From Patescibacteria group bacterium (GTDB lineage: Bacteria; Patescibacteriota; Patescibacteriia; UBA2591; JABMQE01): 64,000 nucleotides of DNA. The notes below the pieces were generated by a model. That model was not told where the DNA came from. It did not search any database and was given only the letters and a program-made list of their open reading frames with translations. A program made the position numbers and the translations under genes. The stretch lies in contig JAHIMF010000041.1 in NCBI GenBank assembly GCA_018896645.1, forward strand, positions 1,980 to 65,979, read 5' to 3'. Shown here one piece after another: positions 32,152 through 49,861 of the stretch (the first letter of the stretch is position 1; the number at the start of each line of letters is the position of its first letter).

Positions 32152-32316
32152 TTAATAGAGTTAATATGGTAGTTAATAAAGTAGTTAATAATGGCGACGG
32201 CAGGTCTATTAACCTTATTAACAATTTTATTAACTCTATTAACAACCGTATTAACAATTTGAATAATCAAAATAAGGACTTCAATTCCTTAATTGATAAA
32301 TGAATGAATAGTAACT

Positions 32317-34353: not shown

Positions 34354-34406
34354 AGTTATAAGTTATTGGTTAGATATTTATTAATGTTAGAAGGATTGTT
34401 TTCAAC

Positions 34407-34865
34407 ATGGAAATCTTTAGAAAAATCATCAACTTAATTAGAGCCCATCCTTATATTCAAACTCACCACAAGTTAAAGCAATTTATAAAATTTGCTATTG
34501 TGGGGGCTTGTTGCGCTGTGATTGATTTTGGTATTTATTTAATTTTAACCCGCTTTGCCAATTTTAATTATTTAATAGCCAATCTTATATCTTTTTCATT
34601 GGCCGCAACTGCCAATTTTATTTTTAACAAGTTTTGGACTTTTCGGGATTATGCAAAGAAGAGGTTGCATGTGCAGTATATTAAATTCATTATCATTGCA
34701 GTTTGCGGTTTATTTTTAAACGAGTTGATTTTATATTTGCTTACTGACAAACTGGATTTGCACGATATACTTTCTAAAACAGCGGCAACAGTTATTATTC
34801 TTTCTTGGAACTTTACCATGCAGCGGGCCTGGACATTTAAAAATGCAGGTGAACTTTTAGAATGA
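34407..34865 (+). CDS. GtrA-family membrane protein
   Basis: 152 aa ORF with four TM helices. 'FIKFAIVGACCAVIDFGIYLIL' GtrA signature. Confidence 0.7.
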   Translation: MEIFRKIINLIRAHPYIQTHHKLKQFIKFAIVGACCAVIDFGIYLILTRFANFNYLIANLISFSLAATANFIFNKFWTFRDYAKKRLHVQYIKFIIIAVCGLFLNELILYLLTDKLDLHDILSKTAATVIILSWNFTMQRAWTFKNAGELLE

Positions 34866-34900
34866 CTTGTTTTTTAGAATATTTGAGGCTATAATGATAG

Positions 34901-35110
34901 TAACTTATAGTAATAAGCTCGGCTCGCTTCGCCCATTCGGCCCCGAGCTCTCCTCGAGTCTGAGCGACCTCGGAGTCGAAGACATGGCCGAGGGGTCGCC
35001 TTCGCGTAACACAATAGTAATACGATGGTAACTCATTGTTTCCTACAATGTATTACTATTGTATTACGCGAGTCCTGACGAAGTCAGGACGAGCTTATTA
35101 CTATAAGTTA
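34901..35110. repeat. MITE-like element, family D (full copy): 21-bp terminal inverted repeats TAACTTATAGTAATAAGCTCG with a GC-rich nested-hairpin interior
   Basis: TIR at 34901-34921 and its exact reverse complement at 35090-35110. Nested IRs include CGCGTAACACAATAGTAATA/TATTACTATTGTATTACGCG and GTCCTGACGAAGTCAGGAC. Interior is ~60% GC in a ~33% GC genome. Confidence 0.55.
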
Positions 35111-35173
35111 CCACCCTCTGTTCACTGCAATTATTTTTTAAATTTTGAAATTCTAATTTTTAATTCCAATCAT

Positions 35174-36235
35174 ATGCCTGAAAATTTTGTTTCTGGAAAA
35201 AAAAATGTTTTAGTAACAGGCGGAGCTGGCTTTATTGGCTCCCACCTTTGTGAAAAACTAGTTAAAAATAATCATGTACTTTGCCTTGATAATTTTAGCA
35301 CGGGGCAAGAAAGTAATATTGATCATTTGATTCAAAATCCTGATTTTAAGTTCATTAAACATGACATTACCGAACCAATAGATTTAGAAAAATCCCGCGA
35401 GGCCCAGATGTTTAAAATTGAATTTCAGGGTATCCAGGAAATTTATCATCTGGCTTGTCCAACCTCTCCCAAGGAGTACAATAAATACCCAATTGAAACC
35501 TTACTGGCTAATTCTTACGGCGTAAAAAATACTCTTGATTTGGCAATTAAATATAAAGCCAAATTTTTATTTAGCTCGACTGATGCTGTCTACGGCGAAC
35601 CCCAACCGAACCAGGAGCCTTTTAAAGAAGATTATTGGGGCTATGTTAATCATTTGGGTCCCCGGGGTTGCTATGATGAGGGTAAACGATTTGCCGAAAC
35701 TTTAATTGTTAACCATCGAAAAAAATTTAATATTGATACTAAAATTGCAAGAATTGCCAATACTTTTGGTCCTTTGATGAGACTTGATGATGGCCGAGTG
35801 ATTCCGGATTATATTAATTCGGCATTAAAGGGCAAGCCAATACTTATCCATGGTGATCAAAACACGGTCAGCACCTTTCTGTATATCAGCGATTTAATTG
35901 ATGCCCTAACCAAGATGATGGCCTCCAGCGAACCGGGACCTATTAATATTGGGAGTGCCGAAGAATATAGATTAGAGGATATAGCTAAACAAATTATAGA
36001 TCTGGCGGGTTCAAAATCAAAAACAGCATTTGAGGCTCCGCCGCCATATACCACAGTTCAGAATGTGCCAGATTTAACTTTAGTCAAAGAAAAGCTTGGT
36101 TGGTTTCCACTTGTGAAATTAGAAGAGGGTTTAAAGGAAACTATTGAAAAGATGCGAGGCGCAAAAGTGATCAAACCTCTGACTCCCTTTGATATAGTTG
36201 GCGCCCCCCAGCCTAAAGAGGAAGAGGATGAATAG
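35174..36235 (+). CDS. UDP-glucuronate decarboxylase (UDP-xylose synthase)-like short-chain dehydrogenase
   Basis: 353 aa from the ATG at 35174; the ORF-track start at 35036 lies inside the upstream repeat. 'VTGGAGFIGSHLCEKL', 'YHLACPTSP' and 'YDEGKRFAETL' match UXS-type enzymes. Confidence 0.75.
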   Translation: MPENFVSGKKNVLVTGGAGFIGSHLCEKLVKNNHVLCLDNFSTGQESNIDHLIQNPDFKFIKHDITEPIDLEKSREAQMFKIEFQGIQEIYHLACPTSPKEYNKYPIETLLANSYGVKNTLDLAIKYKAKFLFSSTDAVYGEPQPNQEPFKEDYWGYVNHLGPRGCYDEGKRFAETLIVNHRKKFNIDTKIARIANTFGPLMRLDDGRVIPDYINSALKGKPILIHGDQNTVSTFLYISDLIDALTKMMASSEPGPINIGSAEEYRLEDIAKQIIDLAGSKSKTAFEAPPPYTTVQNVPDLTLVKEKLGWFPLVKLEEGLKETIEKMRGAKVIKPLTPFDIVGAPQPKEEEDE

Positions 36236-36237
36236 AT

Positions 36238-36969
36238 ATGAAAATATTTATCATAATTCCAGCTTATAATGAAAGAGAGGCTGTTAATAGGGTAATAGAG
36301 AGAGCTCAATGTTATGGGCAGGTGGTGTTAGTTGACGATGGATCAACAGATGATACACTAAAAAGAGTTCAGAGTTGCGGGGTGCTCACACTGCGGCATT
36401 GCGTTAATTGTGGCCAGGGCGCAGCTTTAAAAACCGGCATTGATTACGCTTTAGCTAGTGGAGCCGAGATTATTGTAACCATGGATTCTGACGGTCAGCA
36501 CCGGCCAGAAGAGATTCCTCAGATAGTGAAGCCGATTGAGAGGGGTGAAGTAGATATTGTTTTGGGTTCTAGATTTTTGGAAGTTAGCACAAATGGCACC
36601 CCGCACAACTCACTTCGTTCGTATGCAGGGCGGGCAAAAGACCACAAAGACTGCATGAAATTTAAAATACCTTTTTCAAAAGAGTGGTTGGTCTTAAAAC
36701 CAGCGATTTTTTTTGAAAGGCTCTTTACGGGGTTAAAACTGACTGATGTTCATCAGGGGTTCCGGGCAATGTCCCGTGAAGCCGCCAAAAAAATTCAAAT
36801 AACCCAAGATAAAATGGCGCATGCCACTGAAATTATTTCAGAAATTAAAAGAAATAAATTACGTTGCAAAGAAGTGCCGGTAACTGTGGTTTATAATGAA
36901 TATGGGCAGGGGATGGGAGGTGCCTGGAAGATTTTGAAAGATTTGTTTTTCAAGAAAATAGTATATTGA
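36238..36969 (+). CDS. glycosyltransferase family 2 (DPM1-like)
   Basis: 243 aa ORF. 'IIIPAYNEREAV', 'LVDDGSTDDT' and 'DSDGQH'. Confidence 0.75.
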   Translation: MKIFIIIPAYNEREAVNRVIERAQCYGQVVLVDDGSTDDTLKRVQSCGVLTLRHCVNCGQGAALKTGIDYALASGAEIIVTMDSDGQHRPEEIPQIVKPIERGEVDIVLGSRFLEVSTNGTPHNSLRSYAGRAKDHKDCMKFKIPFSKEWLVLKPAIFFERLFTGLKLTDVHQGFRAMSREAAKKIQITQDKMAHATEIISEIKRNKLRCKEVPVTVVYNEYGQGMGGAWKILKDLFFKKIVY

Positions 36970-37083
36970 TTAATTGTTACATTGCTAAATTATTGCATTG
37001 CTGATGTGGATGATTGCTAACAATTTAGCAATTTGACAATGTAACAATTGGAACTAATTAATAATGGGCTAACAATTCTAACC

Positions 37084-37419
37084 ATGTTACCTCAACAAAT
37101 CATTGCTATTATTTTAATCCTAATCATTTTTTCGCGCATCGTTGTCCGTTTCCGTCGCAAGGAGATTTCTAAAAAAGAATTTGGCATTTGGACGGTTTTT
37201 TGGTTGTTGGCTTTGGGGGTAGTTTTATTTCTGCGCCAGGTCGATGCCTTTGTCCGGAGTATTGGTATTGTCGGCCGGGGGATTGATGTTATTGTTTATG
37301 TTTCCATTGCATTGATTTTTTATTTAATTTTTAGAATTATTGTGCGTTTGGATAAAATTGAACGGGAGATTACCAGGGTGGTGCGGAAAGTGGCGCTGGA
37401 TGAGGCGGACAAAAAGTAG
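37084..37419 (+). CDS. small membrane protein (DUF2304-like, GT2-associated)
   Basis: Two TM helices. The ORF track starts at a TTG at 37048; the first ATG (MLPQQ...) is at 37084. Confidence 0.4.
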   Translation: MLPQQIIAIILILIIFSRIVVRFRRKEISKKEFGIWTVFWLLALGVVLFLRQVDAFVRSIGIVGRGIDVIVYVSIALIFYLIFRIIVRLDKIEREITRVVRKVALDEADKK

Positions 37420-37467
37420 GGGTTTATTGCATAAACCCCTATGGATTTACATTTGGAATATGAATAT

Positions 37468-37516
37468 AAAAAAAGACCGAGGTCATCGCTTCTGCTGATG
37501 AACCTCGGTTTTTTGG
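37468..37516. terminator. bidirectional rho-independent terminator between convergent genes
   Basis: AAAAAAA-GACCGAGGTCATC-gcttctgct-GATGAACCTCGGTT-TTTTTGG: a GC stem flanked by an A-run and a T-run. Confidence 0.5.
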
Positions 37517-37549
37517 ACTTTTTGGTGGAAAGGAAGATATAGAAACAAT

Positions 37550-38314
37550 CTATTTCCTTGTCAAAAACGTTGTTCCGGGGTAAGAATCTCTGGGCCCATT
37601 TATCCTTTTTAATAAAATACTAGGTTCCTTGCCGTTAATTAGGGCTACTTCCACCTCTTTTGCGGTAGCGAGTTTTGCGGCTTCTATTTTGCTTAGCATC
37701 CCACCGCGGCTAATCGTAGAATCTGTTTTTTTAGCCAGTTGGATAATCCCTTTATCAATCAGAGGGACTTCTTTGATTAGTTCTGCCTCTGGTAACCCAT
37801 AATCACAGAATAGACCATCTACATCAGTCATAATAACCAGTATATCAGCTTTAATTAGCACTGCTATTTTAGCAGACAGTTTGTCATTATCAGCCAGATC
37901 TTTTAAAGCTTTAAGCTCCTCATCCATAACGGCGTCATTGGCATTGACTATGGTCACTTCCCCCCACTTAAATCCTTGCAAAAGTCTTTCTTGAGTGCAA
38001 AACTTATGATCATCTTCAAGATCGTAATAGGTGTAAAGGGCTTGGCCAATGCGAATTGACAGTTGGTCAAAAAAACGGGAATAGACATTCATTAATCTAT
38101 TTTGACCCACCATAGCGGCTCGCGCCGGGGGGTATCCCTTGTCTTTAATCATCCCGGTAGCTACGGCTCCAGAGGTGACCAAGATAATTTCATGACCTTG
38201 TTGATGTAATGTCCCAATTTGCTGAACAAGATGGCCAATAAAAGTTTCATCCAAGCCACTGGTCGTTTGAGCACTGCTTAACAATGAGCTTCCCACTTTG
38301 ATTACTATCCTCAT
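37550..38314 (-). CDS. amino-acid-kinase family protein (glutamate 5-kinase-like, no PUA domain)
   Basis: 254 aa ORF. 'IVIKVGSSLL' and 'GHEIILVTSGAVATG...NDKLSAKIAVLIKADILVIMTDVDGLF' are collinear with ProB-type kinases. Isopentenyl-phosphate kinase cannot be excluded. Confidence 0.45.
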   Translation of the reverse strand: MRIVIKVGSSLLSSAQTTSGLDETFIGHLVQQIGTLHQQGHEIILVTSGAVATGMIKDKGYPPARAAMVGQNRLMNVYSRFFDQLSIRIGQALYTYYDLEDDHKFCTQERLLQGFKWGEVTIVNANDAVMDEELKALKDLADNDKLSAKIAVLIKADILVIMTDVDGLFCDYGLPEAELIKEVPLIDKGIIQLAKKTDSTISRGGMLSKIEAAKLATAKEVEVALINGKEPSILLKRINGPRDSYPGTTFLTRK

Positions 38315-38420
38315 TGATTTCCTCCCGTTTAGTTATTTTTGTGTAGGAAAAACTTGTTTAAAGACCTTATCACACCTCACAAATCTTGTCAAGACCCTTC
38401 TAAAATGCTACAATTATCCT

Positions 38421-39524
38421 ATGAAAAAGGCAGCCGTGATAATTGTTACATACAATGCGGAAAAGTATATTGAGCCACTTTTTGAGAGCTTAGCTAAGCA
38501 AGATTATCCTAAAGATGATTTTAGGCTTTTTTTGGTTGAGAATAAATCCGAGGATAAAACAATAGCAGAGATTAAAAAATGGGTTGATGCAGAGATAAAT
38601 AGGAATGGCTCTAATATTTCTAATAAATCTAATATCTTGAATAAGGATTTTTTGGATGTGGAGATTATTGAGAATAAGAAGAATCTGGGTTTTGCTGGGG
38701 GATATAATGTCGGAATGAATAAATCGTTGGATAGGGGATTTGATTATATTGTTTTATTAAATCAGGACATGGAAGTGGATGAGCACTGGCTAAGCGAGAT
38801 GGTGAAAAAAGTAGAATCAGACAAAAGTATCGGTGCAGTGCAATCCCTGATGTTGCTCACTAAAAAACGAGACAAAATAAATTCAACAGGTGAGCGTTTA
38901 AATTATTTAGGCATTGGATATAGTGGTAATTATCAATTATTAATTATCAATTATCAACCCAAGGATAACATAATCAGCTATGCTAGCGGTGCAGCCGTAT
39001 TATTCAAGTCAGACGTGCTCAAACGCGTTGGCTTATTCGACGAGTCATTTTTTATGTATCACGAGGATTCAGATTTGAGCTGGCGAGTTCGTCTGGCTGG
39101 TTATGACATTGTTTTAGCAGATAAGGCGATTGTTTATCATGATTATAAATTTAATCGTAATCCCAAGACATTTTATTGGACCGAGAAAAATCGTTTAACG
39201 TTTCTTTTGAAGAATTTTGAATTTAAGACATTAGTATTAATTTTTCCAATATTTGCGGTTATGGAATGCGGGATGTTGTTGCACGCGTTAGTAACCGGCT
39301 GGTTTTGGCAGAAGATCAAAAGTTATGGCTGGGTTTTGCGAAATTTAGGCAATATTTTAAAGTCAAGAAAAGAGGTGCAGGAATTGCGCAAGGTGCGTGA
39401 TCGTGATTTAAAAAAGTATTTGGTGGCAGGAATAGAGTTTGGAGGGCTGGAGAATGTATTGCTTAAATATGTGGCTAATCCAGTGTTAAAATTATACTGG
39501 TGGGTTGTGAAGAGGCTTATCTAA
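38421..39524 (+). CDS. glycosyltransferase family 2
   Basis: 368 aa from the ATG at 38421 (MKKAAVIIVTYNAEKYI). 'LVENKSEDKT' and 'LLNQDMEVDEHW' GT2 DXD region. Confidence 0.7.
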   Translation: MKKAAVIIVTYNAEKYIEPLFESLAKQDYPKDDFRLFLVENKSEDKTIAEIKKWVDAEINRNGSNISNKSNILNKDFLDVEIIENKKNLGFAGGYNVGMNKSLDRGFDYIVLLNQDMEVDEHWLSEMVKKVESDKSIGAVQSLMLLTKKRDKINSTGERLNYLGIGYSGNYQLLIINYQPKDNIISYASGAAVLFKSDVLKRVGLFDESFFMYHEDSDLSWRVRLAGYDIVLADKAIVYHDYKFNRNPKTFYWTEKNRLTFLLKNFEFKTLVLIFPIFAVMECGMLLHALVTGWFWQKIKSYGWVLRNLGNILKSRKEVQELRKVRDRDLKKYLVAGIEFGGLENVLLKYVANPVLKLYWWVVKRLI

Positions 39525-39554
39525 ATCACGAATATTAAGGCTGTTTGAAAATTG

Positions 39555-39705
39555 TTATTCCGAGCGTAGCGAGCTTTTTTTTCATTCCGAACGGAGTCCC
39601 GCACGCATGCGGGGCGCAGTGAGGAATCCCTTAACTCTAGAAAATGGAAGGATGGGGTGGAAAGCCTGCGGTGAAGGGATTCCTCGCTGCGGCTCGGAAT
39701 GAAAA
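39555..39705. repeat. GC-rich composite hairpin repeat, family E: three related modules (TTCATTCCGA...GAGGAATCCCTT) in direct and inverted orientation
   Basis: Module at 39581-39632. Its shortened inverted counterpart is at 39674-39703. A partial copy sits at 39555-39574. Confidence 0.45.
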
Positions 39706-39789
39706 AAAACTTCGTTCGAAATAGTAGAACAGTGTTTTCGGACAGTCTCATATATTCGTTTTAATTCGTGAATAATTCGAGTAATATTA

Positions 39790-40968
39790 GTGCTTATGAA
39801 GATAGCTATTATCACCTCTACTTTCCCGCCCTACCGCGGCGGCATCGGCAATGTGGCCTATCAGGAAGCCCGGGAATTAGCGCGGCTTGGCAATCAGGTG
39901 ACAATTTTTACACCCAGGTATGATACGACCCAAGATAAAGTCCAAAAGGTTGATGGCCTTATTGTCAAGCGGCTTTTTTCATTGCTCAAATTTGGCAATG
40001 CGGCTTTTTTGCCGCAGCTTTTGTGGTCGTTGGGGGATTTTAATGTTTGGTATTTGCATTACCCGTTTTTTGGCGGTGCGGAGATTGTATGGCTTTTAAA
40101 GAAATTCAAGAAGTCAAAAAAAATAATTATTCGTTATCATATGGATGTGGTGGGCAGAGGATCGTTAGAATTTTTTTTTAACGCTCACTCCCGCTATATC
40201 ATGCCCAAAATTATCAAATCAGCGGACAGGGTAATTGTCTCGTCCTATGATTATGCTCATCATTCCAATATTAAAGAATTAATTTCAGGCAATCAAAAAA
40301 AATTTACAGAGATTCCTTTTGGGGTGGATTTGAAAAGTTTTATTCCCAGCTCAAAAGACGATTTATTTTTAGATGAATTAGGCGTGGCAGCAGAAGATAA
40401 GATAGCCATGTTTATAGGGACCTTGGATAAAGCCCATTATTTTAAAGGAGTGGAAATTTTGCTTCAGGCGTTTAGTTTGCTCGAAGACCGGCCTTACAAA
40501 TTAGTAATTGTTGGCGAAGGAGATTTGCGTTCACATTACGAAAAGATGGCTGAAAAATTAGGTATTACTAAAAAAGTAATTTTTGCCGGCGCGCCCAGCG
40601 ATAGAGATTTACCGGCATTTTATAACATTGCTGATGTTGTGGTTTTGCCTTCAATTGATAAAAGCGAGGCTTTTGGTTTGGTTTTAATAGAAGCCATGGC
40701 TTGCGCCAAACCCGTGATAGCTTCTGATTTGGCTGGGGTGAGGAGCGTGGTTGAAGATGGCGTTAATGGGTTTTTAGTTAAGCCCAAGAATACTGGTGAA
40801 TTGGCTAATCGGATTGATTATGTTTTGAGCAACATTGAGACTGCTAAGCAAATGGGGGGGAGAGGTCGGGAGAAAGTTGAGCGGGTTTATAATTGGGAAC
40901 GGGTTGGGCAAGATTTATCACGAATATTACACGAATTATTCACGAATTGCAATCGAATTTATATATGA
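39790..40968 (+). CDS. glycosyltransferase family 4
   Basis: 392 aa ORF. 'SEAFGLVLIEAMACAKPVIASDLAGVRSVVEDGVNGFLV' GT4 signature. Confidence 0.8.
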   Translation: MLMKIAIITSTFPPYRGGIGNVAYQEARELARLGNQVTIFTPRYDTTQDKVQKVDGLIVKRLFSLLKFGNAAFLPQLLWSLGDFNVWYLHYPFFGGAEIVWLLKKFKKSKKIIIRYHMDVVGRGSLEFFFNAHSRYIMPKIIKSADRVIVSSYDYAHHSNIKELISGNQKKFTEIPFGVDLKSFIPSSKDDLFLDELGVAAEDKIAMFIGTLDKAHYFKGVEILLQAFSLLEDRPYKLVIVGEGDLRSHYEKMAEKLGITKKVIFAGAPSDRDLPAFYNIADVVVLPSIDKSEAFGLVLIEAMACAKPVIASDLAGVRSVVEDGVNGFLVKPKNTGELANRIDYVLSNIETAKQMGGRGREKVERVYNWERVGQDLSRILHELFTNCNRIYI

Positions 40969-41023
40969 ATAATTAACTTAAATTATCTCTAATGAGCTCT
41001 GATAACTTGGATAATATTTACGC

Positions 41024-43537
41024 ATGCTAAATAAACTCATTTCTCAAATCCAACGCGACAAAAACTATACTTTCACCACTTTAGCGATTTTGTGCGTGGT
41101 TTTTTTGTGGTTTGTAATACAGGTGGTGTATCCGTCAACTTCTGGGGTTATTGGTTTTGGCGGGCGATTGGTTGCTTTTAGCGCCTTTTTATTTTATTGG
41201 TTTATTGGGGCTTCTTGGTTAGCAGGCATTTTTAAAAAGATTGTCAAATTTAGTAATGTTTGGTCATTTGTTTTTGGAATTTTCTTAATGCTTTATTTAA
41301 TTAGTTTTGTAATGGCATTTTGGATTGTGTTTTATAAGATAACGGTAGTGCTCATGGCGATGAGTTTGATGATTTTGATTTTGGGCATTTCTTTTTTATA
41401 TAGGAGAGTAACTAGTCACTCGTCATTCGACCCTGAGCTCATGACCGAAGGGTCACTAGTCACTGGGGATTCTTTTTCTCCAGAAGAATCTAAACAAGAA
41501 TTAGTGGTTACTAATAATACTTCTTTTGGGGATTCCTTAATCCTTGGCCACTGGGTTTGGCCGTCATTAGCAGTAGCCGCTATCATTGCCATCGGACTTC
41601 TATTCCTCGCTCGTACTGGCGACTATATGATTACCCCTTGGTCTGATGTGAGTCCTTTATATTTATACTTTTATGCCTTCATCTCTTTTATTATTTTTCT
41701 CTTGATTTTTTCTCGGACGCGGTTAAGAACCCTATTGATTATTATCATTCTTCATTCGTTTTTACTGCACTCTTATTTACCAATTGTTTATAAAACAGGT
41801 TTTGGCGGCGATAAGTGGCGGCATATTGCGGCCGAGAGATCGCTCCAAGCTGGAGAGGTTTATTCGCCGAGTTTGTTTGGCGAAGAAAAGCTGACGATGA
41901 GAAAGATTGGTCCGTTTTCAGTGCCCGAGGTTTTTATTGTTGGCAATAAAACCTCTTATGCTAATCAATGGGGTTTAACTATTGCTTTATCTTGGATATT
42001 AAATATTGATGTCTTTTGGATTGACCTTTTGCTTGTATTCGCCTTGTGGTCAATTTTTATTCCCTTATTTTTGATTAAAATCGGTTCTTTTTTTATCAAA
42101 GATAAAATATTTCTCGGACTGTTAACGTTTGTGCCTTCGCTTTTTTATCCTTTGCAGGTTTATGGCTCTATTACCATTCCCGTGGCGTTTGGTTTTTTGT
42201 ATTTTGTTTTTATGCTTGCTTTGTGGCTTTTATATTTGCATAAAAATGAATGGGATAAGCGATTTTTTGGGTTTTTATTGATATTAACGGCTTTGATGTA
42301 TTTTAATTATTTTATTTATTTTGTTCTAATACTGGAGATTGGGGCTATAATTTTTGTATTTAAAAAATATATATTACCGCGCCTCTTGCAGGGTCGCTCG
42401 CCTTCAAAAAAGTTTATATTTTACTTGTTGTTTTTGCTGGGATTTTGTGTTGTCTTTATTCCTGTTCTTGATAAACTAATTGGCCTATCTAATTTTGATG
42501 TGGGGGGCTTGATTCATTTTTGGAAAATCCCAAGACAGTTGGAAGAATTTTTTCTGGGTAAACTTTTGGGGTTGGGTGAATTTGTTCCTTTTCCAACATT
42601 TATTTCTCAAGGCAATTTTATATTTATGCAACTTTCCCGATATTCTTTATCCAGCACCACTTTTTTGAATTTTGTTTATTGGCAAAAATATATCAGCATT
42701 TTTTTATGGCTTTTGATTGTTTATGGAATGACCCGTATTGGCAAAGTCAAGGCTATGCGTGTAGCGACTCTTTGGCTTATTTTTATTTTTATCCTTTTAA
42801 CCAATCATTTTTTATCAATGTATTACATGGATGGGGTGCGGTTATTGACGAAACGTCTGGATTTAGTCATTGCGTTTTTTCTATTGCCCATGCTCGCGCT
42901 CGGAATTTACCGGATAGTTTTTCGAAACTCAAAAATTGTCAGTCATAATGCCAAAATTATTGCCCTGGGCTTGCTTTTGGTGGTTTCTTCAAGTGTTGCT
43001 TACGCTTCCGGGCCAAAATTGGAAGTAGTGACCGAGGATGAACTGGAAGCCGCGGAATATGTGTTTAAAGAAATTAAGAAATTAAGAAACAAGAAACAAG
43101 AAACTAGTGAACTAGAAATTGGGGACGATCCCAGCGACCAATTACTAATTAATAGTGACGAGGTTAATAATGTTAATAGAGTTAATAATAAATGGTATTA
43201 TTGTGTGTTGGCTAATACTTGGCCGCTTTTAGGATTAGAGGCAGTGTCTAATAGGCGTGTTGTAACCGGGGGCTTTCCGGTTTATACTGAATACGCGCAA
43301 CCGGAACGGGTGCAGCTTTGGAAAAAAATGATTAGCGAGCCCTCAATTCGGTACTTAGAAAAAAGCCTGGAGATTACCGGAGCTGATCATTGTTATTTTA
43401 TGATAGAGAAAAAATGGTTTGATGTTGAGGAAAAAAAGCAAGAGGAAAAATTGGAGCGGACTATAGAGATGCTGGGGAAGTATGAGAGGTTTGGGGAAGT
43501 GTATGTATTTTATTATGAGGGTGAGGACCACGAATAG
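41024..43537 (+). CDS. large polytopic membrane protein (about 20 TM helices; GT-C or polymerase-like) with an in-frame repeat insertion
   Basis: 837 aa ORF. Very hydrophobic up to ~aa 650, with an acidic C-terminal domain. No catalytic motif recognised. Confidence 0.45.
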   Translation: MLNKLISQIQRDKNYTFTTLAILCVVFLWFVIQVVYPSTSGVIGFGGRLVAFSAFLFYWFIGASWLAGIFKKIVKFSNVWSFVFGIFLMLYLISFVMAFWIVFYKITVVLMAMSLMILILGISFLYRRVTSHSSFDPELMTEGSLVTGDSFSPEESKQELVVTNNTSFGDSLILGHWVWPSLAVAAIIAIGLLFLARTGDYMITPWSDVSPLYLYFYAFISFIIFLLIFSRTRLRTLLIIIILHSFLLHSYLPIVYKTGFGGDKWRHIAAERSLQAGEVYSPSLFGEEKLTMRKIGPFSVPEVFIVGNKTSYANQWGLTIALSWILNIDVFWIDLLLVFALWSIFIPLFLIKIGSFFIKDKIFLGLLTFVPSLFYPLQVYGSITIPVAFGFLYFVFMLALWLLYLHKNEWDKRFFGFLLILTALMYFNYFIYFVLILEIGAIIFVFKKYILPRLLQGRSPSKKFIFYLLFLLGFCVVFIPVLDKLIGLSNFDVGGLIHFWKIPRQLEEFFLGKLLGLGEFVPFPTFISQGNFIFMQLSRYSLSSTTFLNFVYWQKYISIFLWLLIVYGMTRIGKVKAMRVATLWLIFIFILLTNHFLSMYYMDGVRLLTKRLDLVIAFFLLPMLALGIYRIVFRNSKIVSHNAKIIALGLLLVVSSSVAYASGPKLEVVTEDELEAAEYVFKEIKKLRNKKQETSELEIGDDPSDQLLINSDEVNNVNRVNNKWYYCVLANTWPLLGLEAVSNRRVVTGGFPVYTEYAQPERVQLWKKMISEPSIRYLEKSLEITGADHCYFMIEKKWFDVEEKKQEEKLERTIEMLGKYERFGEVYVFYYEGEDHE

Positions 43538-43747
43538 CACAAAAGACCACAAATTTTGCCATTATAGTTTGGTTTGTGTATAATGCAATTAGTGATATTT
43601 ATCCATTTAGCATCTTTTCATTTATCATCTTTTTATTAATTTATTTGTTTATTAATTTATTGAATTTATTAATAAACTAATAAAAGCGAGCGAGCGCAAT
43701 AAATCAGTAAAAAATATGATAAATGGATATATGGAAAATGAAAATGT

Positions 43748-44263
43748 ATGAAACTCGGCGTTATCTCCGATACCCACGGGGAAATAGAAAAAATTAAAAA
43801 AGTCCTTGAAATTTTCAAAAAAAGAAGCGTAGAAATGATTATTCATGCCGGGGACATGGACAGGGTTAGAAATTTAGAAGTGTTTCAAGGCATTGGGGTG
43901 CCTTTAAAAATGGCAATTGGCAATATAGATGAAGAGCCTGTTTTGTATCCGCCGAAAGCCAAAGAATTAGGCCTTGATTTTGAAATGAACAGTTTTTTGA
44001 ATGTAGAAGCCGGGGAAAGGCGATTGTTTTTATTTCACGGTAATGTGTTGGGCGGGCTTGAGCAGGTATTTGATACCTTGATTACTTCTCGCAAATATGA
44101 TGTTATAATATACGGACATACGCACAAGCCGCGGAATGAATATAAAGATAATGTATTGATTTTAAACCCCGGTAGTTTACAATCAATTCAGTTGGGGATT
44201 AAAGATTCAGCGGCAGTGTATGATACAGAGACTAACAAGGCAAAGATTATAGAGGTTAATTAA
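43748..44263 (+). CDS. metallophosphoesterase (YfcE/MJ0936-like)
   Basis: 171 aa ORF. 'ISDTHG', 'HAGD', 'GNID' and 'GHTH' metal-binding motifs. Confidence 0.7.
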   Translation: MKLGVISDTHGEIEKIKKVLEIFKKRSVEMIIHAGDMDRVRNLEVFQGIGVPLKMAIGNIDEEPVLYPPKAKELGLDFEMNSFLNVEAGERRLFLFHGNVLGGLEQVFDTLITSRKYDVIIYGHTHKPRNEYKDNVLILNPGSLQSIQLGIKDSAAVYDTETNKAKIIEVN

Positions 44264-44298: not shown

Positions 44299-46344
44299 AT
44301 GAAACTTTTAATTACCGGCGGGGCCGGGTTTATCGGCTCCAATTTTATCCGTTATATTTTAAAAAAATATCCAGGTTATAAAATTATTAATCTGGATAAA
44401 TTAACTTATGCCGGGAACTTGGAGAATTTGCGTGACTTATCCGCCCCTGGCGGAGAGAATGATCCCAGATATAAATTTGTTAAAGGTGATATTTGTGATG
44501 AGAAAATTGTCAGTGAAGCGGCCAAGGATGTTGATGCAATAGTGAACTTTGCGGCAGAAAGCATTTCAGAAGAAACCTACTTACCGATTTGGAACAGAGG
44601 AAATATAGAAGTTACTACCCTGAAAGAACTGTTTGAGAAAGTTGTTCATCAAAATAAGACAAAGGTGGTGGTCCGAAAAGACAGAGAAATAATTAATTTT
44701 GCTCATAAAAATTATAAAGTTCTATCATATAAAGGTGGTATTGGCTATTGGATGCCAATTAAGCAAATGAGTAGACATAAGTATAAAGGCAAATTAATAA
44801 GACTGAGTCAAAAATGGGGAGAGATTACTGCCACACCCAATCATTCAATTTATGACTGTGATTTTAATTTGACCACCCCCCTTAAAAATCCAGAACTTTT
44901 AGGTTTAAGAAACATAAACCACATTTCCAAAAAAAAGAAATATCTGAATTTTTCAGGTAAAAAGTTAAAGGTCCTATTAAGAGTTTTGGGAGCCTACATT
45001 TCTGAAGGTTGGACAACATATAATAAAAGGAATGGGAGCTATCATTTTGGTATATCTAATACTGATGAAGAACAGATAGTATTGCTAAAAGATGATTTAT
45101 TATCGCTGGGTTATAGACCGAATATTACCAAAACAAAGGGTGGATTATTTCAGCTAATAATTAGTAATAAAGGTTTTTTTAATTTTGTTAGAAAAGAGGC
45201 GGGATTTAGATCAGCAGGTAAATTTATTCCCTCTTTTATTTTTCAGCTAGAGACTTCTCTACAACAAGAATTTTTGCGGCTGTTAGTGTGGGGAGATGGG
45301 CAAGAGATAGTAAATAAAAATTATAAAACCACAAGATATGTTACTAAATCTAAAAAATTAGCTACAGGGCTATCTTTATTGCTTTCTCTATTTCATTATA
45401 ATTATTCTGTAGGTTATGATAAAAGATTCAATGCTTACATCATTGTTTGGGGTAATGATTATACGATTTCATTAATAAATAAAGAATATACAGAAATACC
45501 TTACGACGGTTATGTTTATGATATTTCAGTAGATAATTTAAAAAACTTTGTTTGCGGAGTAGGGAATATAGTTGTTCATAATACGCATGTGGACCGCTCG
45601 CTTTACGAACCTGGTAGTTTTATTAAAACCGATGTTTATGGCACTTGGGTTTTGCTTGAGGTAGTGAAAAGGTTTAAGATTAAAAAATATTTGCAGGTCT
45701 CAACTGATGAAGTTTATGGTGATGTTTCTAGCCCCAATTTTTCAAAAGAGACGGACTTGTTGCACCCCTCGTCTCCTTATTCTGCTTCTAAGGCTGGCGG
45801 TGATATGCAGGTATTGGCAAGTCACCGAACTTTTGACTTACCGATTTTAATTACCAGAAGTTCTAATAATTATGGACCTTTCCAATATCCAGAAAAAATT
45901 GTACCTTTGTTTATAACGAATTGTCTGGAAAATAAGGAAGTGCCGGTTTATGACGGGGGAACGCAGATCAGGGATTGGTTGTATGTTGAGGATAATTGTA
46001 CGGGCATTGATACGGTATTACACAAAGGCGAGTTTGGCGAGATTTATAATATCGGCGCTAATCAAGAGCCGGAAATTACTAATTTGGAGTTGACCAAAAC
46101 AATATTAAAATTAACCGAGAAAGATGAATCTTTAATCAAACACGTTACTGGTCTTAGGCCTGGTCATGACCAACGTTATGCAGTGGACACTACAAAGATT
46201 CGTAAATTAGGATGGGAACCCAAAATGAGTTTTAAGGAGGGCATGAGTCAAACGGTTTATTGGTATGTTAAGAATCAGGATTGGTGGAAGAAGATAAAGA
46301 GCGGAGAATATCTTGAGTATTATAAGAAGCATTATCGCGAGTGA
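44299..46344 (+). CDS. rfbB: dTDP-glucose 4,6-dehydratase interrupted by an in-frame intein; 340 aa of extein plus a 341 aa intein
   Basis: N-extein 'MKLLITGGAGFIGSNFIRYILKKYPGYKIINLDKLTYAGNLENL...VNFAAE' and C-extein 'THVDRSLYEPGS...YVSTDEVYGD...YSASKAGGD' are collinear with RmlB throughout. Confidence 0.85.
   Translation: MKLLITGGAGFIGSNFIRYILKKYPGYKIINLDKLTYAGNLENLRDLSAPGGENDPRYKFVKGDICDEKIVSEAAKDVDAIVNFAAESISEETYLPIWNRGNIEVTTLKELFEKVVHQNKTKVVVRKDREIINFAHKNYKVLSYKGGIGYWMPIKQMSRHKYKGKLIRLSQKWGEITATPNHSIYDCDFNLTTPLKNPELLGLRNINHISKKKKYLNFSGKKLKVLLRVLGAYISEGWTTYNKRNGSYHFGISNTDEEQIVLLKDDLLSLGYRPNITKTKGGLFQLIISNKGFFNFVRKEAGFRSAGKFIPSFIFQLETSLQQEFLRLLVWGDGQEIVNKNYKTTRYVTKSKKLATGLSLLLSLFHYNYSVGYDKRFNAYIIVWGNDYTISLINKEYTEIPYDGYVYDISVDNLKNFVCGVGNIVVHNTHVDRSLYEPGSFIKTDVYGTWVLLEVVKRFKIKKYLQVSTDEVYGDVSSPNFSKETDLLHPSSPYSASKAGGDMQVLASHRTFDLPILITRSSNNYGPFQYPEKIVPLFITNCLENKEVPVYDGGTQIRDWLYVEDNCTGIDTVLHKGEFGEIYNIGANQEPEITNLELTKTILKLTEKDESLIKHVTGLRPGHDQRYAVDTTKIRKLGWEPKMSFKEGMSQTVYWYVKNQDWWKKIKSGEYLEYYKKHYRE
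44560..45582 (+). mobile_element. intein with LAGLIDADG homing-endonuclease domain inside rfbB
   Basis: Starts with Ser (S88, 'SISEETYL', block A). Block B 'TATPNHSIY' (TxxH). Two LAGLIDADG-like motifs 'LLRVLGAYISEGW' and 'FLRLLVWGDGQE'. Ends 'NIVVHN' followed by a +1 Thr. The insertion splits the conserved extein motif FAAES|HVDRS. Confidence 0.75.
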
Positions 46345-46390
46345 TTGAATAATTAAGTAACTAACTAATCGAGTAATTAGGTAATTATTT

Positions 46391-47098
46391 ATGTCAAAAC
46401 CAAAGATATACCCATCGGTTGTTACTTGGGGAGCGGATTGGAGACAGCAATTAAGAGATGTTAAAAAATTGAAATTAAGGGAGGCGACTGTTTTTTTGAC
46501 TGGAATTGACAAAGATGCACATCAAGAATTCTATAGATTTTTAAAAAATAGCGGGATTAAAAAAATACCTCATATTCATTTGCGGCATGATTTTGATGAG
46601 GACGAAATTAAAGACTTGACTAAAGAATATGGCGTAGATTATTTTACGATTCATTTTAAAACAGTTGAGCATTATTTGAATTGGAATAAAAGCTTGAAGG
46701 ATAAAATGTGTGTTGAATATAATGCTGATGAATGGGAAGGAGTAAAAATTAACGATTTTGAATTTATAAAAGAGATTGCCGGGGTTTGTGTTGATATTGG
46801 GCACTATGCCGCTGAAAATTTGTTGAATCGGTTTAATACCATCGAATTGTTTAAAAAAGTGATTGACACTTATCCCGTTGTAATAAATCATCTAAATGGC
46901 AAATATTTTGTTAAAAACAAAGATGGATGCGATGAAATAAAGCGAGGACATTTAGTGGTTGACATAAAAAAAGATTTTGAATATTTGGATGATGTGCCTA
47001 GAAAATTATTTACTAAAAATGTTTATCTTGAATTAAGGAATACGATACCGGAACAGATTGAGATAAGGGATTATTTGTATGGGAAATATTTTAAATAA
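46391..47098 (+). CDS. hypothetical protein between rfbB and the epimerase/reductase
   Basis: 235 aa ORF with no recognisable motif. Sits within the rhamnose gene set. Confidence 0.3.
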   Translation: MSKPKIYPSVVTWGADWRQQLRDVKKLKLREATVFLTGIDKDAHQEFYRFLKNSGIKKIPHIHLRHDFDEDEIKDLTKEYGVDYFTIHFKTVEHYLNWNKSLKDKMCVEYNADEWEGVKINDFEFIKEIAGVCVDIGHYAAENLLNRFNTIELFKKVIDTYPVVINHLNGKYFVKNKDGCDEIKRGHLVVDIKKDFEYLDDVPRKLFTKNVYLELRNTIPEQIEIRDYLYGKYFK

Positions 47099-47204
47099 AA
47101 ATTTCTACCCGACTTTAGTCGAGGGTTCGCGAAGCATTAGCTTCAGACGAAGGCAACTAAAGTTGTCCGACCCTGACCTAAAGGTCGGTAGAAAGTGAAA
47201 AACC

Positions 47205-48023
47205 ATGAAATACCTAATTTTCGGCAATGGCTATCTTGGCCAACAATTTCATAAATATTTTAAAGGCTCGGTGATGAGTGAGGTTTTTGTTAAGAAAGAG
47301 GAAGATGCTTTGCGTGAGATTGAGAAACATGAGCCGGAATGGGTGCTAAATTGCGCTGGGATAACTGGCCGGCCTAATATTGATTGGTGCGAAGATAATA
47401 AACAGGAGACATTTGAGGGCAATGTTTTATTACCCTTGATGATTGCTAAAGCTTGCAAAAAAGTTGGGGTTAAGATGTTGCATTTGGGCTCGGGCTGCGT
47501 ATATTCCGGCGATAATAATAGGAAGGGCTGGAGCGAAAAAGACGCGCCAAATTTTAGCGGCAGTTTTTATTCTAAAACCAAGGCCTTAAGCGAGGATATG
47601 TTAAAAGATTATAATGTTTTGCAATTGCGTTTGCGGATGCCAATTGATAATGATATTTCCAGTGAAAGAAACTTCATTAAAAAAATTACTGGTTATAAAA
47701 AAGTGATTGATATAAAAAATTCCATGACTATTGTTGATGATTTACTGCATGTTGCTGACACTTTGATGTCAAGAAATAAAACCGGAATTTATAATATGGT
47801 TAATCCCGGACCGATGAGCCATAGAGAAATTCTTGATTTGTATAAAGAGATGGTTGACTCAAAGTTTAATTACGATATTATTTCAGTTGATGAGTTGCAT
47901 AAAACGACTAAGGCGGAGAGGAGTAATTGTGTTTTAAATATGGAGAAATTAACGAAAGAAGTGGAGTTAAAGCCGTTGAAAGAGCGTTTGACTGAAATCT
48001 TTCAGAGAACACAGGAAAAGTAA
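47205..48023 (+). CDS. NRS/ER-type bifunctional NDP-4-keto-6-deoxyglucose 3,5-epimerase/4-reductase (eukaryote/giant-virus-like rhamnose synthase C-terminal-domain homolog)
   Basis: 272 aa ORF. 'NCAGITGRPNIDWCEDNKQETFEGNV', 'GSGCVYSGD', 'PNFSGSFYSKTKALSEDML...LQLRLRMPI', 'RNFIKKITGYKKVIDIKNSMTIVDDLL' and 'NPGPMSHREILDLYK' are collinear with Arabidopsis NRS/ER blocks (GRPNVDWCE, GSFYSKTKAMVEELL, LRVRMPI, RNFITKI..Y.KVVDIPNSMT, NPGVVSHNEILEMYK). Confidence 0.65.
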   Translation: MKYLIFGNGYLGQQFHKYFKGSVMSEVFVKKEEDALREIEKHEPEWVLNCAGITGRPNIDWCEDNKQETFEGNVLLPLMIAKACKKVGVKMLHLGSGCVYSGDNNRKGWSEKDAPNFSGSFYSKTKALSEDMLKDYNVLQLRLRMPIDNDISSERNFIKKITGYKKVIDIKNSMTIVDDLLHVADTLMSRNKTGIYNMVNPGPMSHREILDLYKEMVDSKFNYDIISVDELHKTTKAERSNCVLNMEKLTKEVELKPLKERLTEIFQRTQEK

Positions 48024-48157: not shown

Positions 48158-48880
<723 letters not shown>

Positions 48881-49141: not shown

Positions 49142-49861
49142 TTATTCTTCCATTCTGCGCAGACACTCCCAATATAACAGTTCGCAATTACGGCAATCTA
49201 CACAAACTGAGCTCCAGGGCGTGCTGCACATGCGGACACCTCTACCCTTATAGCGTTTCAGTATTTCCAGTAAGACTTCGGTTTTGATGCAGTAATAATC
49301 ATTAAGAATACTTTTCCGCCATTCGTAGTCTTCTGACATAACCACATTTGCCTGATTATAATAACGCATAAATGTCATAACAACCGGTACTCCTTGAGCC
49401 AGGTAATACTCAACTAGTGAATCCTGAACTCCCAGGCCCCAGCTATTTGTTCTGATGCGCACAAACATTACATTCTTTGGGCACTCAACGAACAGGGACT
49501 CTCTGCCATTACAAGTAAAGACTACTGGTGCCGGAAAGTCAAAACGAGGATGCGAGGTGTTGAAGAAACGGTGTTCATACTGGTTAGTGGATTCAATAAC
49601 ATATTCTCGTTGAATATTGCTATCATGACCACTATTAATACGAACAATTTTCCCTGCCGCTTCTTGGGGAGTAGGAAACAATGGCTTGTCTAGTGTCCGA
49701 TAGAATCTCCCACCATTATAGAAGCACTCGGCACATCCCATGGGACATTCTCCGGTCTGGGGGATACAGTCAATCAAATTAGTGTTAGCCAGCTTGGGGT
49801 TTCTGTCCATAATCTTCTCCTTTGAGCACAATTGTTTCAGGATATTTCGGAAGAGGTTCAT
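49142..49861 (-). CDS. Cys-rich hypothetical protein with N-terminal CX3CX2C motif, in a GC-rich islet
   Basis: 239 aa ORF. 'GECPMGCAECFYNGG' near the N-terminus and 'CSTPWSSVCVDCRNCELLYWEC' at the C-terminus. Local GC is ~48% against a ~33% background. Confidence 0.4.
   Translation of the reverse strand: MNLFRNILKQLCSKEKIMDRNPKLANTNLIDCIPQTGECPMGCAECFYNGGRFYRTLDKPLFPTPQEAAGKIVRINSGHDSNIQREYVIESTNQYEHRFFNTSHPRFDFPAPVVFTCNGRESLFVECPKNVMFVRIRTNSWGLGVQDSLVEYYLAQGVPVVMTFMRYYNQANVVMSEDYEWRKSILNDYYCIKTEVLLEILKRYKGRGVRMCSTPWSSVCVDCRNCELLYWECLRRMEE

Follow-up and report, generated by a model that had tools for sequence, protein, structure and literature searches.

A predicted NRS/ER-type epimerase-reductase within a probable activated-L-rhamnose operon of a Patescibacteria bacterium

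Within the 64-kb stretch of Patescibacteria DNA that was analyzed as a whole (hereafter, the window), four genes follow one another on the plus strand. The first, rmlB (44299..46344), encodes a dTDP-glucose 4,6-dehydratase of 681 amino acids (TIGR01181). It is followed directly on its 3' side, in an arrangement that is conserved, by an open reading frame for an uncharacterized 235-aa protein (ORF235, 46391..47098), predicted to be a metal-binding TIM barrel. Next come the gene for a 272-aa NRS/ER-type NDP-4-keto-6-deoxyglucose 3,5-epimerase/4-reductase (47205..48023; PDB 4QQR, 7JID), and rmlA (48158..48880), which encodes a short-form glucose-1-phosphate thymidylyltransferase of 240 aa (Pfam NTP_transferase, E 2.2e-61). 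The two middle frames, both on the plus strand, are found at the positions that an earlier note on this DNA had given for them. On its 5' side rmlB adjoins, on the same strand, a gene for a YfcE-like metallophosphoesterase of 171 aa (43748..44263; Pfam Metallophos_2, E 6.8e-32), with which the operon possibly begins, and genes for surface glycans (Wzy_C, two GT2 and one GT4) lie beside the rhamnose genes. A scan for promoters and terminators between 43.5 and 49.2 kb returned sites no more numerous than in shuffled sequence; the best promoter-like site of the region, at 43556-43584, has 11 of 12 matches, and such sites are likewise no commoner than in shuffled sequence. Two antisense frames (46207-46512 and 46541-46891) were treated as spurious, as they lie inside or overlap the conserved ORF235 and rmlB frames. 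We consider it probable that rmlB-ORF235-NRS/ER-rmlA constitutes a four-gene operon for activated L-rhamnose, in which ORF235 is most likely co-expressed with rmlB.

The RmlB reading frame is interrupted by an intein with a LAGLIDADG homing-endonuclease domain (aa 88-428 of the protein, 44560..45582, plus strand; Pfam Intein_splicing and LAGLIDADG_3, TIGR01445 and TIGR01443), leaving an extein of 340 aa. The insert sits between NFAAE and THVDRS; Ser is its first residue, HN are its last two, and Thr occupies position +1. Moreover, it presents the features by which an intein is recognized, namely N- and C-terminal splicing blocks, the endonuclease domain and a conserved extein site that is empty in an ortholog: aligned with the intein-less RmlB of another locus (L002, 83% identical), the extein shows no gap across the junction.

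We then focused on the 272-aa protein, which the earlier note had matched block for block with the plant NRS/ER. All five motifs quoted there were recovered (GRPNIDWCE, GSFYSKTKA, LRLRMPI, RNFIKKITGYKKVIDIKNSMT and NPGPMSHREIL), aligning column for column with the Arabidopsis NRS/ER (PDB 4QQR), an agreement that, at the level of sequence, is far beyond chance. In a search of PDB sequences, 4QQR was retrieved at E 8e-65 (222 bits, 45% identity) and the mimivirus L780 protein (PDB 7JID) at E 6.8e-41 (37% identity), while the best bacterial RmlD structure reached only E 2.8e-6, and identity to RmlDs amounts to 22-25%. The protein matches PF04321 (RmlD_sub_bind), reflecting a fold common to RmlD, but it scored 63.2 bits against TIGR01214 (rmlD), for which the equivalog cut-off is 224 bits. 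A phylogeny, which the earlier note had proposed as a check, was obtained as a neighbor-joining tree, and it places the 272-aa protein within the NRS/ER clade and not in that of RmlD. By these sequence comparisons, and in line with the earlier assignment to the NRS/ER rather than the RmlD type, the protein is a member of the NRS/ER (UGER) family and falls outside the RmlD clade.

ORF235 was harder to place. It has no match in Pfam, NCBIfam, PHROG or PDB sequences, and to that extent the earlier remark that it contains no recognizable motif holds for family libraries. The remark does not extend to structure, as the confident predicted model is a xylose-isomerase-like alpha/beta TIM barrel of eight strands, with acidic and His residues as putative metal ligands at the C-terminal ends of the strands, resembling the ligand set of endonuclease IV (Nfo). 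For this comparison, the Nfo site was taken to be a trinuclear zinc site with nine ligands. Eight of the nine have counterparts in ORF235, in the same order and on the same strands, the equivalent of Nfo D229 being Arg185 in ORF235 and Asp in most homologs. Local motifs are also alike (GVCVDIGH in ORF235 vs. GVCIDTCH in Nfo, NHLNG vs. MHLND, and LE in both), and the metal-type residues are invariant in the ORF235 family. Judging from the model, ORF235 probably binds two or three metal ions. Its family comprises 444 clusters, mainly from CPR and DPANN lineages, without a Pfam model. Matches to PF01261 (AP_endonuc_2) were weak and confined to 5 of 57 family members (best E 1.7e-4), with none at E ≤ 0.01 for ORF235 itself. 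A profile of the family run against PDB sequences, and hhalign comparisons with single Nfo and YcjR sequences, gave no more than a GxCxDxxH match to Nfo, over 18 columns and at a probability of 8%, and the nfo-family HMM did not match ORF235. The sequences retrieved by a protein search with E. coli Nfo were all enterobacterial, at ≥85% identity, and yielded no useful endonuclease IV profile. Literature searches found nothing on the reaction of Art22, the top Foldseek match of ORF235, and nothing useful on TTHB071. Compared with the xylose-isomerase-like superfamily (the PF01261 clan, with endonuclease IV, the MbnB/DUF692 multinuclear iron enzymes, and keto-sugar epimerases and isomerases), the ORF235 family is much shorter, at 225-240 aa, and an operon link to rmlB is known for no characterized member of these TIM barrels.

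The genomic context of ORF235 was examined in related loci, found with an 8-sequence alignment. One subclade lies directly 3' of rmlB in 14 of the 19 loci with enough upstream sequence, whether an RmlD or an NRS/ER gene comes next, with spacing that ranges from a 2-nt overlap to a gap of about 80 nt; where members of this subclade lie away from rmlB, UppS, a DegT aminotransferase, or a PBP together with a GT4 is found nearby. The greater part of the family, some 55 loci from Saccharibacteria and DPANN, is unlinked to rml genes and has heterogeneous neighbors, which favors a general role over one specific to rhamnose. As a best guess, held at somewhat less than even confidence, ORF235 may carry out a metal-dependent reaction on a 4-keto sugar nucleotide or on another envelope-glycan precursor. 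A doubtful but serious alternative is that ORF235 is a miniaturized endonuclease-IV-like phosphodiesterase with a housekeeping task in CPR and DPANN organisms (e.g., AP-site repair), its place after rmlB being inherited synteny without a role in the pathway. The ordered Nfo-like ligands and local motifs would fit such an enzyme, as would the spread of the family across small-genome lineages in unrelated contexts, and no canonical nfo was found in the window.

Regarding the nucleotide carried by the sugar, the RmlB of this operon scored 418 bits against TIGR01181, the dTDP-glucose 4,6-dehydratase equivalog, above its cut-off of 365 bits. It also keeps, in VPVYDGG, the Tyr used by prokaryotic enzymes for stacking on thymine; UDP-specific enzymes of eukaryotes and viruses have His, Gln or Met there (PMC9741107). 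The RmlA has TIGR01207 (rmlA) as its nearest family. Because RmlB is of the thymidine type, dTDP-L-rhamnose appears from sequence to be a likelier product than UDP-L-rhamnose. The earlier note had raised the possibility of UDP-L-rhamnose, which we regard as unlikely. Characterized NRS/ER and L780 enzymes do prefer UDP substrates (PMC6556577, PMC9614988); the RmlA is a short form whose best NCBIfam match, TIGR01207 (rmlA), reaches 279 bits and remains under the 360-bit equivalog cut-off; and RmlA-type and NRS/ER-type enzymes can both be promiscuous for UDP and dTDP. However, L780 and the Arabidopsis NRS/ER also accept dTDP substrates, and L780 uses both nucleotides (PMC9614988), so that an enzyme of NRS/ER type does not imply UDP. 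Moreover, the same types of RmlA and RmlB are present in sister operons of the RmlD type. Unlike the genes for plant NRS/ER and L780, the gene for the 272-aa protein lies in a bacterial operon together with RmlA and a thymidine-type RmlB, which makes a dTDP rather than a UDP sugar its likely substrate.

The earlier note had also reported that the locus lacks a cupin-type RmlC, and this holds for the entire window: tblastn with E. coli RfbC gave a best E of 1.5, tblastn with six Patescibacteria RmlC sequences a best E of 0.69, and an HMM built from seven RmlCs, run against all six-frame ORFs, a best E of 1.9 (2.6 bits). In the sister loci, E. coli RfbC proved too distant a query, and RmlC was detected with the divergent cupin of locus L082. 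In this way, a PF00908 cupin was found in each of the five RmlD-type loci whose flanks are long enough (L006, L010, L018, L071 and L082), as well as in L028, where rmlB-ORF235 occurs without a nearby rmlD. No RmlC was found in the NRS/ER-type loci L002, L003, L037 and L104, the last of which is an independent operon with the order rmlB-rmlA-NRS/ER-GT4. The 272-aa gene occupies the slot held by rmlD in the sister operons, and in a tree of ORF235 the NRS/ER-type operons form one clade adjoining the RmlD-type operons, which suggests that the displacement happened once. Since no RmlC is found in the window, whereas RmlD-type sister operons with enough flank always have one, it is most likely, on gene content and sequence, that rmlC and rmlD were displaced by one bifunctional gene. 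Against this stands the fact that only 64 kb of the genome are visible, and an RmlC could lie elsewhere.

For the prokaryotic NRS/ER clade, bifunctionality is a prediction from residues and gene content. In L780, epimerase activity comes from a Cys/Lys pair, both residues having mutagenesis support (PMC9614988). In the alignment, the 272-aa protein keeps equivalents of L780 Cys108 (in GSGCVY) and Lys175 (in NFIKKI), as do 21 of 21 prokaryotic homologs. In seven RmlDs, the Cys column holds Tyr or Phe, and the Lys column holds Thr, Arg or Ala, or Lys in two of the seven. In addition, the reductase residues of short-chain dehydrogenases (Ser, Tyr and Lys, in S-x-C and YxxxK) fill the aligned columns, and a dinucleotide-binding motif, GNGYLG, is found N-terminally at residues 7-12.

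It is improbable that the 272-aa protein is a 4-reductase only, i.e., a functional RmlD served by a 3,5-epimerase from an rmlC outside the window. Such a reading draws on the extent of the window, which shows just 64 kb out of a genome of roughly 1 Mb, on the RmlD_sub_bind fold of the protein, and on Rhizaria, in which RmlC is fused to NRS/ER (PMC6556577), so that an NRS/ER-like protein is not always self-sufficient. Nevertheless, the epimerization Cys and Lys, with roles established in L780 (PMC9614988), are conserved here and as a pair absent from RmlDs, and the RmlD-type sister operons with enough flank all have RmlC in the cluster, the NRS/ER-type operons none. Slightly less probable still is that the enzyme yields another 6-deoxyhexose, such as 6-deoxy-L-talose or a mono-epimerized product. 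The relative Mg535 from Megavirus performs only C3 epimerization and reduction (PMC9614988), and the stereochemistry of reduction is not readable from sequence; however, the 272-aa protein shares 45% identity with an enzyme proven to make rhamnose and has every one of the named catalytic residues, and it stands in for rmlC and rmlD in an otherwise unchanged operon. Lastly, the view of ORF235 as a non-cupin RmlC analogue, a TIM-barrel keto-sugar epimerase supplying the 3,5-epimerase, which was suggested by its place after rmlB and ahead of the reductase gene, the point at which a pathway intermediate would be handled, by keto-sugar 3-/4-epimerases among xylose-isomerase-like barrels (MJ1311, UlaE, YcjR and D-allulose 3-epimerase), and by RmlB-ORF235-RmlD-RmlA loci without an E. 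coli RfbC match, was dropped once the L082 query revealed their PF00908 cupins: it is largely refuted by this co-occurrence with genuine RmlC and is very improbable, as ORF235 itself is not a cupin and has no PF00908 match, also accompanies an NRS/ER with its own epimerase residues, and carries an invariant His-rich ligand set like that of three-metal enzymes, unlike the single-metal E-D-H-E epimerase site.

With a bifunctional NRS/ER-type enzyme as the preferred reading, RmlA would form dTDP-glucose, and RmlB, after splicing of its intein, would convert it into dTDP-4-keto-6-deoxy-D-glucose. A single NRS/ER-type short-chain dehydrogenase would then perform both last steps in one active site, epimerizing C3 and C5 by means of the Cys/Lys acid-base pair and reducing C4 with NAD(P)H via the Ser/Tyr/Lys triad, to give dTDP-L-rhamnose or, less likely, UDP-L-rhamnose. 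As to its history, the operon probably derives from an ancestral rmlC...rmlB-ORF235-rmlD-rmlA arrangement, in which the bifunctional gene took the rmlD slot and rmlC was lost, while ORF235 would be a separate, conserved accessory gene encoding a compact xylose-isomerase-like TIM barrel. The 272-aa protein resembles known systems on two sides. [quoted passage not shown] With the RmlD and RmlC pair (TIGR01214 and PF00908) it would share the overall pathway and product, along with the RmlD fold and the operon position of rmlD, differing in its catalytic Cys, where RmlDs have Tyr or Phe, in the lack of an RmlC partner in the window, and in its low identity to RmlDs.

Earlier surveys held the NRS/ER-type epimerase-reductase to be nearly absent from prokaryotes (PMC3220709; bioRxiv 10.1101/854612); Yin et al. 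(2011), who detected no more than four homologs in bacteria, supposed that most prokaryotic carriers had died out. Our search retrieved 894 clusters of prokaryotic homologs at E ≤ 1e-5, on contigs of up to 646 kb, and the named carriers include Patescibacteria, Falkowbacteria, Komeilibacteria, Gracilibacteria, Altiarchaeota, Diapherotrites and Woesearchaeota. The earlier note was correct about the family, but its description of a eukaryote- or giant-virus-type enzyme that is unexpected here was overstated, as by sequence the 272-aa protein is an ordinary member of a large prokaryotic NRS/ER clade. In a rough neighbor-joining tree, the CPR/DPANN branch is sister to the pair formed by eukaryotes and viruses. 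A broader proposal, which we put forward only tentatively, is that the rmlB-linked ORF235 subclade represents a fifth kind of 6-deoxyhexose-nucleotide enzyme, a compact multi-metal TIM barrel acting on the reactive NDP-4-keto-6-deoxyhexose that RmlB produces, or else on a phosphorylated precursor that feeds the same envelope glycan, and selected for co-translation with RmlB in Patescibacteria, and that, separately, the CPR/DPANN NRS/ER clade is the progenitor of eukaryotic RHM and NRS/ER.

The rhamnose pathway is a textbook case of a split between kingdoms, with RmlB, RmlC and RmlD in bacteria and a bifunctional NRS/ER in eukaryotes and giant viruses, and RmlC and RmlD are antibacterial drug targets. 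This locus and about 900 related clusters suggest that the bifunctional solution is in wide use among ultra-small bacteria and archaea, and that one such gene can replace rmlC and rmlD within an otherwise unchanged bacterial operon; genome surveys requiring RmlC would score such genomes as rhamnose-negative. The ORF235 family, with its 444 clusters lacking annotation, offers a cheap target in the search for new activity, with a high-confidence model and a pool of candidate substrates at hand. Finally, the prokaryotic clade bears on the origin of the eukaryotic enzyme.

The NRS/ER-type gene (47205-48023) lies in a row of five co-directional genes on the + strand, spanning 43.7 to 48.9 kb of the window, where it follows a YfcE-like metallophosphoesterase gene (43748-44263), rmlB (44299-46344) and ORF235 (46391-47098; 235 aa), and precedes a short form of rmlA (48158-48880), with intergenic spacers of 46 to 134 nt. 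The window belongs to a Patescibacteria (CPR) genome: the 272-aa protein and ORF235 are each 100% identical to an NCBI protein of 'Patescibacteria group bacterium', encoded on a 90-kb contig. RmlB is split within the conserved motif NFAAETHVDRS, between NFAAE and THVDRS, by an intein of 341 aa that includes a LAGLIDADG homing-endonuclease domain (44560-45582, +); the ortholog from a related locus, L002, is 83% identical and has no intein. MurA is encoded downstream of the operon, and upstream lies a surface-glycan gene block (29947-43537) encoding a Wzy_C/O-antigen-ligase protein with TPR repeats, an SDR epimerase/dehydratase (35036-36235), two GT2 (36238-36969 and 38298-39524), one GT4 (39790-40968) and an 837-aa polytopic membrane protein (41024-43537) that matched no family in Pfam. 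Just past rmlA, on the opposite strand, a Cys-rich 239-aa ORF (49142-49861, -; CPMGCAECFYN...CVDCRNCELLYWEC) had no match in Pfam, NCBIfam or PHROG. A small NUDIX hydrolase gene was also observed between ORF235 and the NRS/ER gene in L003 (1139-1639), and upstream of rmlB in L006 (4420-4962), there in the position equivalent to that of the metallophosphoesterase; hydrolases of nucleotides or sugar nucleotides seem to accompany these rhamnose operons.

The earlier note had recognized plant NRS/ER motifs in the 272-aa protein, and did so correctly: its top match among PDB sequences, far above chance, was Arabidopsis NRS/ER (4QQR, E 8e-65), followed by the mimivirus UDP-L-rhamnose synthase L780 (7JID, E 6.8e-41), while bacterial RmlDs reached 2.8e-6 at best and otherwise about 1e-3. 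The NCBIfam rmlD equivalog gave 63 bits, below its cut-off of 224. In a joint alignment the identity of the protein is 45% with NRS/ER and 37% with L780, but only 22-25% with E. coli RfbD and six Patescibacteria RmlDs, and a neighbour-joining tree places it inside the NRS/ER clade. Moreover, the acid/base pair of L780 epimerization, Cys108 and Lys175, confirmed by mutagenesis (PMC9614988), has its equivalents kept in the window protein and in 21 of 21 prokaryotic homologs; in the seven RmlDs the Cys position holds Tyr or Phe, and the Lys position Thr, Arg, Ala or, in two of them, Lys. The reductase triad Ser/Tyr/Lys is found in every aligned sequence. Because of the PDB ranking, identities, tree and conserved residues, the protein falls outside the RmlD clade; the locus adds a new bacterial member to a family of enzymes already known.

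Within the 64-kb window, no cupin RmlC was detected with E. coli RfbC or with six Patescibacteria RmlC queries, nor with a seven-sequence RmlC HMM searched against all six-frame ORFs (best E 1.9), which bears out its reported absence. The related operons say more: 99 loci from genomes and metagenomes were collected for comparison through ORF235 homologs. Five of them (L006, L010, L018, L071 and L082) have the order rmlB-ORF235-classical rmlD-rmlA, and all five carry a cupin passing Pfam PF00908 within a few kb; L028 has rmlB-ORF235 and no rmlD nearby, and likewise carries a PF00908 cupin. No cupin was found in the loci where an NRS/ER-type gene fills the rmlD slot (the window, L002, L003, L005 and L037), nor was RmlC found in an independent operon, L104 (rmlB-rmlA-NRS/ER-GT4), whose NRS/ER shares 62% identity with the window protein. 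Sequence and operon comparison thus favor the main point of the earlier note, that a putative bifunctional NRS/ER-type enzyme replaces RmlC and RmlD. In the ORF235 tree, NRS/ER-type operons form one clade adjoining the RmlD-type operons, and the simplest reading would be that the bifunctional gene took over the rmlD slot in place, once, and that rmlC was lost afterwards. The RmlC cupins of Patescibacteria are short, none exceeding about 163 aa (L082, 3458-3949; also L006, L010, L018, L028 and L071), most being known here only as 112-151-aa tblastn segments, and strongly divergent, as the E. coli RfbC query detects one of the six at E<1e-6; close-homology pipelines may therefore under-call rmlC in CPR genomes.

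It had also been proposed that the locus makes UDP-L-rhamnose, which is probably wrong. The NRS/ER type is not decisive for UDP, since L780 uses both nucleotides (PMC9614988), and features of the operon speak against it: RmlB passes the dTDP-glucose 4,6-dehydratase equivalog (418 bits, cut-off 365), RmlA has TIGR01207 as its nearest model, and the RmlB motif VPVYDGG carries a Tyr at what, in our own mapping, would be the thymine-stacking position of prokaryotic enzymes, a position taken by His, Gln or Met in the UDP-using enzymes of eukaryotes and viruses (PMC9741107). The predicted nucleotide leans towards dTDP, and a UDP-L-rhamnose product is unlikely.

The enzyme had been described as of eukaryote/giant-virus type and unexpected here; the type stands, but its foreignness was overstated. 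An indexed search with the 272-aa protein gave 894 clusters (E<=1e-5), and the best 120 of these are 49-100% identical to it and include bacteria (Patescibacteria, Falkowbacteria, Komeilibacteria and Gracilibacteria) and archaea (Altiarchaeota, Diapherotrites and Woesearchaeota). Some homologs lie on contigs of up to 646 kb, and some are already labelled '3,5-epimerase/4-reductase' by JGI. The bacterial homologs found by Yin et al. (2011) numbered just four (Verrucomicrobia); archaea yielded none, and the authors suggested that the prokaryotic carriers had for the most part died out (PMC3220709); a 2019 survey of complete genomes recorded the 'udp pathway' in eukaryotes and mimivirus only (bioRxiv 10.1101/854612), and CPR genome papers describe classical rmlABCD. 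No paper describing a CPR/DPANN NRS/ER clade was found in the literature library searched. Prokaryotic NRS/ER is less unusual than the earlier note had it, but appears poorly documented. One homolog, 54% identical, lies outside any rml operon on a Diapherotrites-type archaeal contig from TARA (L103, 6001-6861), after pyrD, pyrC, pyrE-like and pyrF genes and before a thymidine/AMP-phosphorylase-like gene.

ORF235 was said to have no recognizable motif, which holds for family libraries (no match in Pfam, NCBIfam, PHROGs or PDB sequences) but not for its predicted fold and residue order. Eight close homologs were found in the indexed search, and an exhaustive profile search extended the family to 444 clusters at 50% identity (364 below 1e-10), nearly all members being 215-245 aa long; judged from sequence, this is a real conserved gene. 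An AlphaFold model from the eight-sequence alignment (pLDDT 91.9, pTM 0.88) is a (beta/alpha)8 barrel, and PF01261 was matched weakly by 5 of 57 members. H63, H88, E109, H138, E214 and Q222 are invariant, and each of D135, H167, H187, D67 and some others is kept by at least 90% of the family; in the model, these residues sit at the C-terminal ends of strands 3-8. They run in the same order as the nine residues that bind metal in E. coli endonuclease IV (Nfo; H69, H109, E145, D179, H182, H216, D229, H231 and E261), the residue types having been checked in the Nfo sequence. Local motifs also correspond (GVCVDIGH versus GVCIDTCH, NHLNG versus MHLND, LE versus LE), and at the position corresponding to D229 the window protein has Arg, most homologs Asp. 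Because of this order and these motifs, ORF235 probably coordinates two or three metal ions. It is at most a possible member of endonuclease IV; hhalign aligns the GxCxDxxH block alone. The only informative fusion seen is P0158 (407 aa), in which the ORF235-family domain (residues 2-223) precedes a C-terminal GrpB domain (PF04229, E 6e-46); P0152 and P0188 bear N-terminal extensions of ~65 aa matching no family.

A rough neighbour-joining tree of 79 distinct homologs splits into two groups. All rmlB-linked members belong to the upper, Parcubacteria/Paceibacteria-type group, where rmlB is immediately upstream in 14 of the 19 members with enough upstream sequence, at spacings between a 2-nt overlap and about 80 nt; the linkage holds down to 28% ORF235 identity, with either RmlD or NRS/ER following. 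Upper-group members without it adjoin undecaprenyl-diphosphate synthase (L095), a DegT-type sugar aminotransferase (L011), GT4 and D-Ala-D-Ala carboxypeptidase (L094) or sortase (L043), and their common theme is envelope glycan. In the lower group, some 55 loci of Saccharibacteria and DPANN archaea, neighbours are heterogeneous and rml linkage is essentially never seen, L083 having rmlB 0.7 kb downstream. One contig labelled Gammaproteobacteria, possibly mis-binned, carries two paralogs on opposite strands, separated by about 1.6 kb (L024, 6001-6594, +, and 8214-8873, -). From tree and gene context, the chemistry is probably common to the whole family, and the rmlB-linked subclade has retained ORF235 beside rmlB for a long time.

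To our knowledge, all characterized sugar-acting members of this fold handle carbonyl sugars through metal-stabilized enolates; we tentatively favor, at somewhat less than even chances, action on the 4-keto sugar nucleotide or a related envelope precursor. An endonuclease-IV-like housekeeping phosphodiesterase, which the Nfo-like residue order would suit, is somewhat less likely still; other functions take up the rest. ORF235 as the missing epimerase is rejected because of the family's gene context across loci. This unannotated TIM-barrel family deserves an assay, and an operon that occurs in an RmlC/D-type and an NRS/ER-type version makes an informative natural experiment.
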